Virus genome (UHGV): UHGV-0147509
Length of the DNA: 39,944 nt
Direction: 5' to 3' (one strand)
DNA from: a virus
Shown: positions 4,673 through 38,572 of the stretch, in pieces
Layout of the letters: each line of letters opens with the position of its first letter
Position numbering within the stretch: position 1 is the stretch's first letter
Program-made: the position numbers and the translations under genes
The notes under the pieces: generated by a model
What the model saw: the letters and a program-made list of their open reading frames with translations, nothing else
What the model was told of the DNA's origin: nothing
The model's database searches: none

Positions 4673-6661
4673 ATGACAGACATTACAGCCAATGTTGTAG
4701 TGAGCATGCCTTCGCAACTCTTCACTATGGCTCGTTCTTTTAAAGCTGTAGCTAATGGCAAAATTTATATCGGTAAAATTGACACTGACCCGGTAAATCC
4801 TGAAAACCAGATTCAGGTTTATGTGGAGAACGAAGACGGTTCTCACGTTCCTGTTGCACAGCCAATCATCATTAACGCCGCTGGTTATCCTGTATATAAC
4901 GGACAGATTGCCAAATTCGTTACCGTGCAAGGCCATTCTATGGCTGTTTATGATGCGTATGGGGCGCAGCAGTTCTATTTTCCGAATGTGCTAAAGTATG
5001 ACCCGGATCAGTTAAGAACCGAACTATCTATTAACGGTGGTGCCGGATTAGTTGGCGCAGGAGTTATATCTAGAGGTAATGATAAGTTTTCAATAATGCA
5101 GGGCAGGACATCAGAGTATTTAAATGATGGTCTTACATACGGTATTGGTATCATTATTAATGATTCAATTGTTGGTTCTGTTCCTAATGCAAGCACAGCT
5201 AAAATAAACTATATCATGATTAATGATGACAGAATTAATGCTGTTGATGACCAATCGGCAGGCACAAAAGTTGACGGGTTTTTAGTTCACCATAATTTCG
5301 GATATCAAGAAGCAAAAGGTGGCAGACACGCCGGAGAGTTTGTTTTAACTCACGAAGCAGCCACAAACTTAGAAAATCCTGATAGAAATTATGTTGGTGT
5401 TGTTGGTCTTGCGGTTTCACAAAATGGTGATGGTGGAACGATATCATCATTACCTGGTACATTCAAAGGAGCATATTTTGGCGGAAATATGTATGGACGC
5501 CTGGATTCTGCTGCGGTTGGAGTTTATAACGTTACAGGGTGTGAGTTTAATGTTTCCGCGTTAGTAGGTTCATCTGTATGGTATCGATCAGGTATTCAGA
5601 TTGTCGGTGGTGGTGATGTTCGAGGTACTGCTGTAGATACTGGTATTGCCTTATCAAACCTTTCTACTTCAACCGTTCGCTGGAAAAACGCTATTCGCAT
5701 AGGCAACATGAATGGGGGGCACGCCCTAGGAGGAGATAGTAAAATACTTGTTGCATTTACAGATGTGCCATCCATAACATCAGGATTCGAGATACCAAAA
5801 TGCTCATCAATGATATTGATGTCAGGTGACGTTACTTTACAAAATAGTAAATTGAATATCGCATCTGTTGGCTCATCTATTGAACTTGGTAGTACAACAG
5901 ATTCCGGTGTTTCATATATTGACTTTCACTCAAGCGGAAATAATGTTGATAACGATGGAAGGATTTTCTGTTCTGGTGGTTCTGAAGATTCTGGTGATGG
6001 GACTATTGGATTTAATTCTTCAATCATTCAACTTAACTCAAAAACAGAAATAGTCATGGGGTCTGGCATTAGACCATCTCTTGACAACACCTATGATTAT
6101 GGAACAGCTTCCAAAAGAGGAAGAACAGCGTATTTTGGTACCGGGTCAATTAATACATCTGACTCTCGCCATAAACCAATCAAAGAAAAAATACCAGAAT
6201 ATATTCTTGACGCGTGGTCAGAAGTAGACTGGGGGACATGGTTTAAATTTGATGACGCAATAGCGATAAAAGGAGAAGATGGTGCGAGATGGCACTTTGG
6301 ACTGATTGCGCAGCGTGTTGAAAAAGTTTTTTCATCACATGGAATAGATGGATTTAAGCTTGGCTTGCTATGTTATGACTCATGGGATGACGTTTACGTT
6401 GATGTGCAGACAAATATAGGGGAGGTGGTAAAAAAAACAAGAGAAACGAGCGATGGAAATACAGAAGAATATACTGAACCTGCCCCTGCAAAATTTAAAA
6501 AGGTTCTTGATACACCAGCTGGTGAAAGATACGGAATTCGTTATGAGGAGGCCTTGTCTCTCGAGGCTGCATTACAACGGCGTAACTACTTTCGTTTGCT
6601 GGAGAAACAAAAAGAGTTAGTTATGCGTATTGAGAAAATAGAGGGTATACTTGGAATGTAA
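4673..6661 (+). CDS. tailspike protein (P22 gp9-like head-binding N-terminus, divergent receptor domain, C-terminal intramolecular chaperone-like domain)
   Basis: N-terminus [43 protein letters not shown] closely matches recalled P22 gp9 head-binding domain; C-terminal region with SDSRHK motif resembles peptidase S74 auto-cleaving chaperone domains; SD GGAG upstream. Confidence 0.85.
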
Positions 6662-17581: not shown

Positions 17582-17728
17582 ATGACAAAACAACTCAGTC
17601 CTTACCAGGACAAAATTCACAAACACATACTACGTGATCGCTTCCTGTCCAGCTTCAAGCAGCCTGGTCGATTCCGGGCTGAGTTGGAAAAGGTGAAGCT
17701 GATGCAGAAGGAGAAAGGTCATGAGTAA
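17582..17728 (+). CDS. hypothetical small basic protein between cII and the initiator gene
   Basis: 48-aa ORF not in the ORF track; ATG preceded by AGGAG at good spacing; its stop overlaps the start region of the downstream gene. Confidence 0.4.
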
Positions 17729-18620
17729 CATATCTAATCTAGCCGAAGCCAGAGAGGCCAGAAGGCTACAACAACCGCATCAAAGCAGCGGTAAGGGGTA
17801 TGCCTTGCTGCACCGTAAAATTATGGATGTGCCGTTTTACAAGGACGCAGAAGCTGCGCATCTGTGGGTTCACTTAATCCTCAAAGCAAAGCATACGCCT
17901 GAGTATGTAATGACTGACGCAGGAGAAATTCTGGTAGGCAGAGGGAAGCTACTTGGCGGTAGAAACTCTCTGGCGTTTGAAACAGGACTCAAACCAGATC
18001 GCGTTCAGTACCTGCTTAGAAAGTTCAAAAAACTCGGCATGATTGACTGGGTTTCACACGGTAAATTCTCAGTTTTCTCGGTAGAGAAATATGACGATTA
18101 TCAGTCAAATTTTGTACCAGCAGATTACCAGCAAATTACCACCTCAAAGCCAGCAATACCAATGCCTGTAAGCAATGCTGTACCAGCAGATTACCAGCAA
18201 ATTACCACAGATAAAGAATATAATAATATTATCTCTAATACTGACGTATTAGAGAGTGCCACAGCAGACAAAAAGTCTGACAAGAAAAAACCTTCCGTCA
18301 GCTGTCAGGATGTTGTCGATGCTTACCACGAAATCCTTCCTGAAGCGCCAAGAATCCGCGCACTGAATGACAAGCGTAAAAACCAGATCCGAACGTTCTG
18401 GCGCAAAGCCGGAGTGATAACCCGCCAGCTTGACGGGCATGGGTTCACGATGCAGGACTGGAGAAATTATTTGAGCTACGTAGGCGAAAATTGTCGATGG
18501 ATGTTCGAAGAGCGTCCAAACCATCAACGCGGAACTGTCTGGCACAAAAAGGGATTTGATTTTCTGCTTAACGATAATACCTACCTGAAAGTTCGTGAGG
18601 GTGAACACGATGACCGATAA
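17721..18620 (+). CDS. replication initiator protein (lambda O / P22 gp18-like)
   Basis: 299-aa ORF with SD GGAGAAAGG; contains the in-gene iteron array (repeated [10 protein letters not shown] in the protein), as in lambdoid O genes. Confidence 0.8.
18114..18250. repeat. replication origin iterons plus AT-rich region inside the initiator gene
   Basis: 29-bp direct repeat GTACCAGCAGATTACCAGCAAATTACCAC at 18114-18142 and 18180-18208 (each with two ATTACCA sub-repeats), followed by an AT-rich stretch at 18209-18250. Confidence 0.6.
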
Positions 18621-20046
18621 TTTTTATGCGCCGCCCCATAGCATCGAGGCAGAGCAGGCGGTGATTGGTGGATTGCTTCTGGATGATGACAGCAGTGAGC
18701 GCGTCCAGAAAGTTCTGGCGATGCTGAAGCCCGATTCATTTTACAGCCGACCACACAAAATCCTTTTCGAAGAAATAACCAGAATGCACCGGGAGCAAAA
18801 GCCAGTAGATGGCCTGACGCTTTTCGATGAACTGGAGCGCAAATCGTTAACGGTGTCTGTTGGCGGTTTTGCTTATATCGCTGAGATCGCAAAGAACACG
18901 CCAAGCGCAGCAAACATCGTTGCCTATGCAATGCAGGTTCGTGAAACCGCAATGGAACGCTACGCCATCAACCGCATGACTGAAGCGATGGAATTGCTCT
19001 ATTCCCGCAACGGAATGACTGCAACGCAGAAGTACGAAGCTATTCAGGCTATTTTCACGCAACTGACAGACCATGCAAAAACCGGATCGCGTCGCGGCCT
19101 TCGCTCATTTGGTGAGGTCATGGAAGACTGGGTTAGCGACCTTGAGAAGCGATTTGACCCGTCAGGTGAACAACGAGGAATGAGCACAGGGATCCCATCG
19201 CTGGACAGGATGCTGTCACCGAAAGGTCTGGTGAAAGGCTCTCTGTTTGTCATTGGCGCTCGCCCTAAGATGGGGAAAACGACGCTATACAGCCAGATGG
19301 CAATCAACTGCGCAGTGCATGAGAAAAAGCCCGCTCTGATGTTCAGCCTTGAAATGCCAGGTGACCAGATACTGGAAAAACTGGTGGGACAGAAGTCAGG
19401 TGTTAACCCGAATATTTTTTACCTTCCGGCGACAAATGACGCTGATGACGGCTATCAGGGTGATTACGATGGTGACTTCAACAGGGCGATCGAAACAGCC
19501 AATCGCTTGAGTGAAATCGACCTGCTTTACATCGACGACACGCCGGGATTATCTCTGGCTCAAATCGTCAGCGAAAGCCGTCGAATCAAGCGAGAAAAAG
19601 GATGTGTTGGCATGATTCTGGTCGATTACCTGACACTAATGACTGCTGAGAAGGCCGATCGCAACGATCTTGCTTACGGCATGATCACCAAAGGACTGAA
19701 GAACCTTGCCAAAGAGCTTGATTGCGTTGTTGTGCTTCTGACGCAGCTTAACCGCGCACTGGAAAGCAGAACCAATAAACGCCCATTACCAAGTGACTCA
19801 CGAGATACAGGGCAGATTGAACAGGATTGCGATTATTGGGTCGGGATCCATCGTGAAGGCGCTTTTGATGACAGTGTTCCACCTGGTGAAACTGAACTAA
19901 TCCTTCGTCTCAATCGTCATGGCAATACCGGCACGGTGTATTGCATTCAGGCAAATGGCGCTATTTATGACACAGACCAACAGTCTGCTGAAATGCGCCG
20001 CCGTGAACGCGAGGAACCGCAGTCCAAGAAGAAAGGAGGATTCTGA
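18610..20046 (+). CDS. replicative DNA helicase, DnaB family (P22 gp12-like)
   Basis: DnaB N-terminal motif PHSIEAEQAVIGGLLLD; Walker A GARPKMGKTT; ATG at 18610 preferred over the track start at 18595. Confidence 0.9.
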   Translation: MTDNFYAPPHSIEAEQAVIGGLLLDDDSSERVQKVLAMLKPDSFYSRPHKILFEEITRMHREQKPVDGLTLFDELERKSLTVSVGGFAYIAEIAKNTPSAANIVAYAMQVRETAMERYAINRMTEAMELLYSRNGMTATQKYEAIQAIFTQLTDHAKTGSRRGLRSFGEVMEDWVSDLEKRFDPSGEQRGMSTGIPSLDRMLSPKGLVKGSLFVIGARPKMGKTTLYSQMAINCAVHEKKPALMFSLEMPGDQILEKLVGQKSGVNPNIFYLPATNDADDGYQGDYDGDFNRAIETANRLSEIDLLYIDDTPGLSLAQIVSESRRIKREKGCVGMILVDYLTLMTAEKADRNDLAYGMITKGLKNLAKELDCVVVLLTQLNRALESRTNKRPLPSDSRDTGQIEQDCDYWVGIHREGAFDDSVPPGETELILRLNRHGNTGTVYCIQANGAIYDTDQQSAEMRRREREEPQSKKKGGF

Positions 20047-35050: not shown

Positions 35051-36469
35051 ATGCCGATTCAGCAACTTCCGCTTATGAAAGGTGTCGGCAAAGATTTCAG
35101 AAACGCCGACTATATCGACTATCTGCCAGCGAATATGTTGGCTACACCCAAAGAAATACTCAACAGCAGCGGATATCTTCGCTCATTCCCGGGCATTGCC
35201 AAACGTTCTGACGTGAACGGCGTATCGCGAGGCGTCGAGTACAACATGGCGCAGAATGCTGTATATCGCGTGTGTGGCGGCAAGCTGTACAAAGGAGAAA
35301 GCGAAGTCGGTGACGTCGCCGGAAGTGGTCGCGTATCAATGGCGCATGGTCGAACATCTCAGGCGGTAGGCGTTAATGGTCAACTGGTCGAGTATCGTTA
35401 TGATGGCACGGTTAAAACCGTCTCAAACTGGCCTACAGACAGCGGATTCACGCAGTATGAGTTAGGCTCAGTCCGCGACATTACGCGCTTACGTGGGCGT
35501 TATGCGTGGTCAAAAGACGGTACTGATTCATGGTTTATCACTGACCTTGAAGACGAATCTCATCCTGACCGTTACAGCGCACAATATCGCGCAGAATCGC
35601 AGCCTGACGGCATCATCGGCATCGGAACATGGCGAGACTTCATCGTCTGCTTTGGTTCATCGACGATTGAATATTTTTCCCTGACTGGTGCAACCACCGT
35701 TGGTGCCGCTTTGTATGTCGCACAGCCATCACTGATGGTGCAGAAAGGCATTGCCGGGACTTACTGCAAAACGCCATTCGCTGATTCTTATGCGTTCATC
35801 AGCAATCCGGCAACAGGTGCGCCGTCTGTGTATATCATCGGCTCCGGGCAGGTGTCACCAATCGCCAGCGCGAGCATTGAGAAAATACTACGCTCCTACA
35901 CTGCTGATGAACTGGCTGATGGCGTGATGGAATCGCTGCGGTTTGATGCGCATGAGTTGCTGATTATCCATCTTCCGCGTCACGTCCTCGTGTATGACGC
36001 ATCTTCAAGCGCCAATGGTCCGCAATGGTGTGTGCTGAAAACAGGCCTGTATGACGATGTGTACCGCGCTATCGACTTCATTTACGAAGGCAATCAGATA
36101 ACGTGCGGCGATAAGCTGGAATCGGTGACCGGGAAATTGCAATTCGATATCAGCAGCCAGTACGACAAGCAACAGGAACATCTGCTGTTTACTCCGTTGT
36201 TCAAAGCGGATAACGCCAGAGTTTTCGACCTTGAGGTTGAATCGTCAACTGGCGTTGCGCAGTACGCTGACCGCCTGTTCCTCTCTGCAACCACTGACGG
36301 CATCAATTACGGGCGTGAGCAGATGATTGAGCAGAATGAACCGTTCGTTTACGACAAGCGCGTTTTGTGGAAGCGAGTCGGGCGCATCAGGAAAAATGTT
36401 GGCTTCAAATTGCGCGTTATCACGAAGTCACCTGTAACTCTGTCTGGCTGCCAGATAAGGATTGAGTAA
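35051..36469 (+). CDS. tail hub protein (P22 gp10-like)
   Basis: 472-aa ORF, same length as P22 gp10, in the syntenic position. Confidence 0.75.
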
Positions 36470-37422
36470 TGGCTGATTCGAATCTCAATGAGCCAGTAAT
36501 CATCCAGGCTACGCGGCTCGATACATCAGTCCTTCCACGCAATATCTTCTCTCAGTCGTATCTGCTTTACGTTATTGCACAGGGTACTGATGTTGGTAAT
36601 GTGGCTAACAAGGCCAACGAAGCAGGGAAGGGGGCTTATGATGCACAGGTGAAGAATGATGAGCAGGATGTCACCCTTGCAGACCATGAATCCAGAATTG
36701 AAACTGCTGAAGCAACTCTCATCAATCATGAACATAGAATCTCAGCAGCGGAAAGCACTCTTGCAGATCATGAAACAAGGATTACGGCTGCCGAAACAGA
36801 GCTGGCTGATCACGAGACGCGAATTGCTGCCAATGAATCTGAGTTAGCAAACCATGATGCGCGAATAACTCAGAATACAACCGATATCAACGCACTTGAT
36901 ACCAGGCTCACAGCGGCAGAGGGAAGTATTTCGACGCTACAAAGCACAGTTGGTGATCACTCAACAAGAATATCTGCGCTTGAGTATGCCACCACGCGCA
37001 AGAAATCAGAGGTTGTTTACTCAGGAGTATCGGTAACCATTCCAACAGCGCCGACCAACCTTGTTAGCCTGCTGAAAACGCTCACGCCGTCATCCGGGAC
37101 GTTGGCACCATTCTTCGATACTGATAACAACAAGATGGTTGTTTTCAACGAGAACAAAACCCTGTTCTTCAAGCTGTCGATTGTCGGGACGTGGCCCAGC
37201 GGAACCGCCAACAGGTCAATGCAGCTAACATTCTCCGGTTCTGTTCCTGATACGCTGGTCAGCAGTCGTAATGCGGCGACAACAACCGACAACATCCTGT
37301 TAGCTACGTTCTTCAGCGTGGATAAAGACGGATTTCTTGCCACAAATGGCAGTACGTTAACCATCCAGTCAAATGGTGCGGCGTTTACTGCCACAACCAT
37401 CAAAATCATTGCGGAGCAGTGA
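36469..37422 (+). CDS. tail needle protein (P22 gp26-like) with extended C-terminal domain
   Basis: N-terminus [53 protein letters not shown] closely matches recalled P22 gp26; heptad repeats (ADHETRI...); 317 aa versus about 233 in P22. Confidence 0.85.
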
Positions 37423-37877
37423 TGATTCAGTTCAAACCAACGCGAAACATCGACCTGATCGAAGCAGTCGGAAATCACCCTGACATTATTGCCGGGAGCA
37501 ACAACGGTGATGGATACGACTACAAACATGATTGCCGTTACTTTGAGGTGAACGTGCACGGGCAGTTCGGCGGCATTGTTTACTATCAGGAGATTCAGCC
37601 GCTGACATTCGATTGCCACGCCATGTACCTGCCAGAGGTTCGTGGATTCAGCAAGGAAATCGGGCTGGCGTTCTGGCGATACATTTTGACCAACACCACC
37701 GTTCAGTGCGTCACATCATTTGCTGCACGCAAATTCCGCCACGGTCAGATGTACTGCGCAATGATTGGCCTTAAGCGTGTAGGAACCATCAAGAAATACT
37801 TCAAAGGCGTGGATGACGTGACTTTTTACAGCGCAACACGCGAAGAACTAATCGACTTCCTGAATCACGGGAGATAG
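37419..37877 (+). CDS. virion assembly protein (P22 gp14-like)
   Basis: 152-aa ORF in the gp14 position; overlapping start/stop with neighbours. Confidence 0.6.
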
Positions 37878-37879
37878 CC

Positions 37880-38572
37880 ATGTTATATGCATTTACGCTG
37901 GGCAGAAAACTGCGCGGCGAGGAACCTTATTGCCCTGAAAAAGGCGGGAAAGGTGGCAGCTCTGATAAAAGCGCAAAGTATGCAGCAGAAGCTCAGAAGT
38001 ATGCTGCAGACCTGCAAAATCAGCAGTTCAACACCATCATGAACAACCTGAAGCCGTTTACTCCTCTGGCTGATAAGTATGTCGGCAGCCTCGAGAACTT
38101 ATCGTCTCTGGAAGGGCAAGGTCAGGCACTTAACCAGTATTACAACTCTCAGCAGTACAAAGATCTTGCTGGTCAGTCTCGCTATCAGAGTCTGGCGGCA
38201 GCGGAAGCAACAGGTGGATTGGGTTCCACTGCAACCGGTAATCAGTTAGCAACAATCGCACCAACGCTTGGTCAGCAGTGGCTGTCTGGTCAGATGAACA
38301 ACTACCAGAATCTGGCAAACGTTGGGCTTGGTGCTCTGCAAGGTCAGGCAAACGCAGGGCAGACATATGCCAACAACATGAGTCAGATTTCGCAGCAAAG
38401 TGCGGCTCTTGCAGCGGCAAATGCCAACAGACCATCAGCAATGCAATCTGCTATTGGCGGAGGTGCGTCTGGTGCTATTGCTGGGGCCGGACTTGCGAAA
38501 TTAATTGGTTCATCAACTCCGTGGGGGGCTGCGATCGGCGGCGGTCTTGGTCTGCTTGGCTCGTTGTTTTAA
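37880..38572 (+). CDS. ejection protein (P22 gp7-like)
   Basis: 230-aa ORF (P22 gp7 is about 229 aa) in the syntenic position; Gly/Ala-rich C-terminus. Confidence 0.7.
   Translation: MLYAFTLGRKLRGEEPYCPEKGGKGGSSDKSAKYAAEAQKYAADLQNQQFNTIMNNLKPFTPLADKYVGSLENLSSLEGQGQALNQYYNSQQYKDLAGQSRYQSLAAAEATGGLGSTATGNQLATIAPTLGQQWLSGQMNNYQNLANVGLGALQGQANAGQTYANNMSQISQQSAALAAANANRPSAMQSAIGGGASGAIAGAGLAKLIGSSTPWGAAIGGGLGLLGSLF

Follow-up and report, generated by a model that had tools for sequence, protein, structure and literature searches.

An HS1-type knobbed tail needle in a P22-like phage genome and whole-heptad length variation of the shaft among its relatives

The tail needles of P22-like phages have shafts of 11-16 heptads (Leavitt et al. 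2013, PMC3741392). The shafts of the Sf6 and P22 needles comprise 11 heptads each, and the needle of HS1, a prophage of E. coli HS, has 16 heptads and is encoded by a gene that runs to codon 317 (PMC3741392). The N-terminal domain of the HS1 needle is 98% identical to that of Sf6 and its knob is 99% identical to the Sf6 knob, with a shaft only 67% identical to the Sf6 shaft (PMC3741392). The N-terminus of the Sf6 needle plugs the hexameric tail hub (Hou et al. 2022, PMC9728967). Swapping the knob onto P22 left the host range unchanged and slowed the release of K+ (PMC3741392). Following the published work on P22, Sf6 and HS1, residues 1-41 of the needle described here would plug the channel of the gp10 tail hub and retain the packaged DNA, residues ~42-175 would make up a long coiled coil of three strands (16 heptads as counted in the publication), and the knob (~179-317) would lie at the distal tip of a needle that touches the outer membrane before any other part on infection. 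Expulsion of the needle would open the channel, and its tip would tune the rate of DNA delivery rather than set the host range.

The window, a stretch of 39,944 nt of the virus genome UHGV-0147509, contains a gene whose product is very probably the trimeric tail needle of a P22-like (Lederbergvirus) phage, namely a knobbed needle of the Sf6 type and HS1 subtype, with a shaft whose length shifts by slippage in relatives. The needle type has already been described (PMC3741392), and the copy in the window is an ordinary member of this crystallised and genetically studied family. The gene is also common in E. coli, with a match in 848 of 5426 complete genomes and a match covering at least 80% of the gene in 164. 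The increment beyond the published description (PMC3741392) is a wider natural range of shaft lengths (~7-20 vs. 11-16 heptads), together with junctions that point to microhomology-mediated slippage. The features of the locus are collected in Table 1.

Table 1. Coordinates of the needle gene, its domains and repeats, and the adjoining genes (positions in the window)
Feature	Position	Strand	Basis
gp10-type tail hub, 472 aa, docking partner of the needle	35051..36469	+	PF11134, E=1.2e-300
Tail needle gene, HS1 type (equivalent of P22 gene 26 and Sf6 gene 9)	36469..37422	+	Open reading frame; PHROG 1030 and 1219; 97-98% aa identity to the 720R6, JEP4 and Gally needles
N-terminal virion-binding domain (putative tail-hub plug), residues 1-41	36469..36591	+	PDB matches; plug function from PMC9728967 and PMC3741392
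Coiled-coil shaft, residues 42-175	36592..36993	+	AlphaFold2 helix and heptad register
Five tandem 42-nt/14-aa (two-heptad) repeat units, residues 70-139	36676..36885	+	Repeat search, 42-nt spacing
Displaced partial sixth copy (TVGDHSTRI)	36941..36971	+	74% family copy; right-hand junction of the 147-nt deletion in the 268-aa relative
TNF-like jellyroll knob, C-terminal, residues 179-317	37003..37419	+	PF16532, PDB matches, Foldseek
gp14-like DUF2824 protein	37422..37877	+	PF11039, E=1.8e-52

Reading frame, gene order and domain architecture

The needle is encoded by a single continuous reading frame of 317 aa plus the stop codon, free of frameshifts and internal stops. It overlaps the upstream gp10-like gene by one base, where the stop TAA runs into the needle ATG (TAATG), and the next gene by one base, where the needle stop TGA runs into the ATG at 37422 (TGATG). 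Although ORF calling begins the gp14-like gene at GTG 37419, its real start is likely the ATG at 37422 in the TGATG overlap, judging from the Sf6 annotation, in which genes 9 and 10 likewise overlap by one base. An antisense ORF of 200 aa with a GTG start (37017-37619, minus strand) lies across the sequence coding for the knob and the beginning of the gp14-like gene and is probably spurious. The genes in the window are ordered as gp4-type adaptor (PF11650), gp10 (PF11134), needle, gp14-like protein (PF11039) and gp7 ejection protein (PF25688), which places the needle between the gp10 and gp14 homologues of a P22-like late operon. The identical gene order was found in eight phage records (Sf6, HK620, Kapi1, JEP4, Gally, Louie, phiKp_30 and 720R6).

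Profile searches assigned both ends of the protein. The Pfam family PF16532 (Sf6-type phage tail needle knob) matches residues 136-317 with E=3e-106 and a score of 353 bits against a cutoff of 27, and the other Pfam matches of the protein were generic coiled-coil families, all below their own cutoffs. Among the PHROGs, phrog_1030 (tail needle knob) matches with E=1.6e-135 and phrog_1219 (tail needle protein) matches residues 1-112. The needle proteins of phages 720R6, JEP4 and Gally, each of 317 aa, are 97-98% identical to that of the window, and the length of 317 aa is unchanged across phages that differ by 3-6% in DNA and in a cluster of 1430 members. Knob homologues also form the C-terminal parts of proteins of unrelated phages with only short N-terminal extensions (PMC3741392), as might be expected if the 317-aa product were an artefact in which a frameshift or misassembly had joined a P22-type needle to a separate downstream knob gene. 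However, the frame is continuous, seven phage records show the fused architecture, as do more than 100 protein clusters (among them the one with 1430 members), and the crystallised HS1 construct (residues 167-317) spans the junction between shaft and knob. Such an artefact has a negligible probability, and neither a separate C-terminal gene nor a frameshift, the two outcomes against which the original prediction had been set, was found.

The AlphaFold2 model, built from an alignment of 13 sequences, has two short N-terminal strands, one continuous helix from residue 42 to residue 175 and a beta-rich domain from residue 179 to residue 316. In a phmmer search against the PDB, residues 1-77 matched the HK620 needle 5BU5 almost identically, and residues 1-131 matched P22 gp26 (2POH, E=2.8e-42). 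The columns of the plug domain are almost all invariant among relatives. Over residues 61-160 the shaft helix has a pLDDT of 89-98. Residues 70-174 keep a clean heptad register, with L, I or V at position a (in every heptad from 70 to 168) and an alternation of H and A, later of N and L, at position d. The core d positions of alternate heptads are occupied by histidines (H73, H87, H101, H115, H129 and H164; 36676-36993, residues 70-175). Such a core histidine ladder in a trimeric coiled coil could make the stability of the shaft sensitive to pH or ions.

The C-terminal part had been proposed as a possible knob domain like that of Sf6, and this proposal was borne out by PF16532 (E=3e-106), by the 97-98% identity of residues ~165-317 to the HS1 and Sf6 knobs, and by structure prediction. 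The alignment of residues 165-317 runs from end to end both for the HS1 knob 4K6B, with two substitutions (E=2.4e-89, 98% identity), and for the Sf6 gp9 knob 3RWN, with four substitutions (E=1.9e-88, 97% identity). The top Foldseek matches of the beta-rich domain (179-316) in the model are 4K6B and 3RWN (E~1e-18), followed by PRD1 P5 and proteins of the TNF/C1q family, a ranking that agrees with the published description of the knob as a TNF-like jellyroll. We infer a homotrimeric assembly of the window needle from its 98% identity to the trimeric crystals 4K6B and 3RWN. The published glutamate contacts (E181, K235, S283, D285, L290 and K312) are all present at the HS1 positions, and so are the S266-R267-N268 triad that contacts phosphate and the two residues specific to HS1, S169 and A305. 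All eleven published residues are thus matched in position, indicating that the window carries an HS1-type needle. The knob is predicted to bind three L-glutamates, on the basis of the conserved contact residues and the published work.

The closest described needle is that of HS1 (EcHS_A0316, 4K6B), which shares with the window needle the length of 317 aa, the 16-heptad class, the numbering of the ligand residues, S169 and A305. The two differ by V219D and S269A, the identity being measured over the crystallised segment; S269A is a common polymorphism. Codon 219 (37123-37125) encodes Asp. Both crystal structures have Val at this position, and of the 101 relatives found to have the motif, 95 have Val, four (other database proteins) have Asp and two have Glu. 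Sf6 gp9 (282 aa, 3RWN; modelled in situ in PMC9728967) has the same three-part architecture, N-terminal domain, knob (97%) and gene position, whereas its shaft is diverged in sequence and 35 aa (five heptads) shorter, with gaps of 28 and 7 aa. The same 28-aa and 7-aa shaft gaps separate all of the 282-aa needles (Sf6, Kapi1, Louie and phiKp_30) from the 317-aa ones, and the knob remains collinear.

The needles of P22 and HK620 (gp26, 233 aa; 2POH, 3C9I and 5BU5) resemble the window needle in the N-terminal plug, the proximal coiled coil and the position after gene 10, but have an unrelated C-terminal tip and no knob. The alignment fails after about residue 95, with 47% overall identity to HK620. 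No domain homologous to P22 gp26 residues ~141-233 was found at the C-terminus, since the P22 and HK620 chains align to residues 1 to ~140 of the query only. A P22-type needle with the P22 C-terminal tip was accordingly rejected, as the C-terminus matches the knob structures instead. The comparison of ~317 aa with ~233 aa in P22 made in the original prediction has to be revised, as the extra residues do not constitute an added C-terminal part. On the alignments, the 84 aa in excess of P22 come from a larger, unrelated knob in place of the P22 tip and from five extra heptads in the shaft, and are not a C-terminal extension. The alignment that had been suggested as a check showed that the Sf6 needle is collinear in the knob and 28 and 7 aa shorter in the shaft, and that the P22-type needle (HK620) aligns at the N-terminus only. 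A further relative in the PDB, the engineered elongated gp26 fibre 4LIN (300-residue chain), matches residues 1-184 (E=5.7e-48) and is without the knob. This fibre, which we take to be a laboratory construct on a P22 scaffold, shows that the needle shaft tolerates inserted extra blocks of repeats.

Repeats in the shaft of the window allele

Near-tandem DNA repeats had been noted at about 36680-36870, encoding the motifs ADHESRI, ADHETRI and ANHDARI. The motifs and their position were confirmed, but the DNA is degenerate, as pairs of units share 40-69% of their nucleotides and 36-79% of their amino acids. Sub-families of the repeat with a spacing of 84 nt were also detected. The longest exact direct repeat in the units is 8 nt long, CTTGCAGA at 36676 and 36760, and a second exact repeat of 8 nt, ATCATGAA, is located at 36725 and 36767. 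Tandem Repeats Finder reported no repeat over 36400-37500 at its lowest score threshold (30), and a true DNA tandem array was dropped on this result.

The stretch LADHETRI occurs twice, and six of its eight codons differ synonymously between the two copies. Where units have the same amino acid, the codon is shared at 28 of 75 positions, against 28.7 expected from independent codon choice. Since codon sharing is at the level of chance, the DNA similarity is fully accounted for by the protein repeat. Read from the codons, the DNA repeat is the shadow of an old 14/28-aa protein repeat with saturated synonymous sites. A recent duplication or gene conversion within the window allele was rejected, because the units keep no more DNA identity than the amino acids require.

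These properties bear on whether the repeats could be an active locus of the contingency type, at which the length of the needle switches often by homologous recombination between the 42-nt units. The units are tandem and the family shows length polymorphism, both of which such a locus would have. However, no exact repeat exceeds 8 nt, far less than the roughly 25 bp needed for efficient RecA-dependent recombination in E. coli. Tandem Repeats Finder returned nothing, the synonymous sites are saturated, and the length of 317 aa is conserved both across phages 3-6% apart in DNA and in the 1430-member cluster. No near-identical repeat units long enough for homologous recombination or slippage were found in the window allele. 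The diverged units would offer microhomology only and would be poor substrates for ordinary homologous recombination in this window. A contingency locus is thus very unlikely, and the window allele, with exact repeats of no more than 8 nt and chance-level codon identity, is probably stable.

Length variants of the shaft in relatives

A homologue search of a collection of 5.8 billion proteins gave 2514 matches at E<=1e-10, and lengths were taken from the 120 listed. The full-length homologues among the matches listed are 254, 268, 282, 289, 296, 303, 310, 317, 331, 338 and 345 aa long, and 100 of the 112 listed sequences beginning with MAD have lengths of 317 +/- 7n. A relative of 324 aa (P0005) is longer by an upstream start call, and its shaft is unchanged. 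An alignment with one sequence per length class showed that the N-terminus and the knob are invariant and that the shaft has clean block gaps abutting the DHExRI motif. The indels are whole blocks of 14, 28 or 49 aa, and at the DNA level blocks of 42, 84, 147 and 168 nt.

The DNA of seven variants was compared, and each junction was placed by minimising mismatches; the junction analysis was limited to variants within a lineage. The 345-aa variant P0001 carries an exact 84-nt tandem duplication, seen as an exact self-match of 92 nt at offset 84. The duplication is bounded by CTTGCAGA (36676, 36760), which is the longest direct repeat of the window at this offset. The 331-aa variant P0009 combines a duplication of the P0001 type (an 87-nt exact self-match at offset 84) with a 42-nt deletion, with junctions as in P0001 and P0010. 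The 303-aa variant P0010, a length found in 31 of the 120 listed proteins, has a 42-nt deletion at the 7-nt CGCGAAT (36818-36825/36860-36867). In the 289-aa variant P0041, an 84-nt deletion lies inside a 43-nt, 74% identical repeat at 36672/36756, with only 3 nt of exact microhomology at the junction. A 147-nt deletion in the 268-aa variant P0063 has a 7-nt microhomology (36807-36814/36954-36961). Two variants belong to the Sf6 lineage: P0050 (338 aa) carries an 84-nt unit in three exact copies, with a 179-nt self-match at offset 84, and P0094 (254 aa) has an 84-nt deletion at the 11-nt CATGAAACGCG. The two largest duplications, those of P0001 and P0050, each come from one assembly, and an assembly error is possible for both. 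The strains with the 345-, 338- and 331-aa alleles have the accessions GCA_026334955.1, GCA_025636725.1 and GCA_011944205.1.

Four of the five junctions are located at the best or second-best microhomology among the possible events of the same size, counted over every distinct event that begins and ends within the shaft (71-142 for each size), with a choice of events that was not blind. Whole-unit length polymorphism with junctions in the repeats was thus found among close relatives. In the mechanism suggested by these junctions, unequal pairing or slippage at the short conserved DHExRI stretches would change the shaft length of relatives by whole heptads. The products would include exact 84-nt tandem duplications and deletions of 42, 84 and 147 nt, and only whole-heptad products would assemble, imposing a filter on the indels. 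We infer slippage from the anatomy of the junctions alone. The repeats had been expected to drive recombinational length variation, which holds for relatives, in whole-heptad steps with junctions in the repeats, but not for the diverged units of the window. Sequence comparison thus supports length variation in the family by way of microhomology and recent exact duplications, and not by way of the diverged repeats of the window allele.

The length classes could also have arisen solely by exchange of whole shaft segments between divergent alleles, with subsequent selection for the heptad register and no slippage within the gene. Mosaicism is high among P22-like phages, the shafts of the HS1 and Sf6 types form two diverged lineages (~67% identity, PMC3741392), and the difference of 28 and 7 aa between them is not attributable to one simple event. 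This 35-aa difference is unassignable to specific events because the shafts are too diverged, and the gap in the MAFFT DNA alignment was placed unlike that in the protein alignment. However, variants within a lineage are 96-99% identical outside one clean block indel, and three alleles repeat their own adjacent 84 nt exactly and in tandem, which allele exchange would not create. The junctions also coincide with top-ranked microhomologies. An origin by exchange alone is therefore improbable for the length classes, and slippage at the DHExRI stretches is the preferred reading.

The lengths of 254-345 aa correspond to ~7-20 heptads and spread over roughly 130 Å, compared with the published range of 11-16 heptads. 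A tentative and rather doubtful extension of the slippage reading is that shaft length is a fast-evolving, tunable trait, for which DHExRI slippage would supply ~7-20 heptads and selection would fit the knob's reach to the depth of the host surface polysaccharide or to the length of the accompanying tailspike; the fresh exact 84-nt duplicates would then be unstable intermediates. A simple one-to-one coupling between needle length and tailspike type was considered and rejected, as three phages with 317-aa needles share only the N-terminal ~140-155 aa of the window tailspike. The length variants constitute a natural allelic series for the effects of needle length on adsorption and on the kinetics of DNA delivery.

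Other features of the window

The whole window is a mosaic P22-like genome. In its virion-assembly module it resembles phiv205-1, CUS-3 and Kapi1, and in its early region HK022 and HK633. The tailspike gene (4673-6661, plus strand) encodes 662 aa with a P22 head-binding domain (residues 1-113) and a Peptidase_S74 intramolecular-chaperone domain (496-557). The receptor-binding body of the tailspike is only 58% identical to that of the best phage record (EcoPhCCP1) and may have an uncharacterised receptor specificity.

A 35-nt direct repeat with copies at 18108 and 18174 (18108-18208, plus strand; 94% identical) is located inside the ORF 17721-18620, and each copy contains the 11-nt sub-repeats TACCAGCAGAT/TACCAGCAAAT. 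This ORF precedes a 483-aa ORF (18595-20046) in the HK022-like early region, at the place of the genes annotated as O and P replication genes in matching phages. By analogy, the 35-nt repeat resembles the origin iterons embedded in initiator genes of the lambda O type. In the late operon, the gp7 ejection-protein gene (37880-38572) contains a 21-nt tandem repeat of two copies with 86% identity (37969-38010, plus strand), which encodes KSAKYAAEAQKYAAD.
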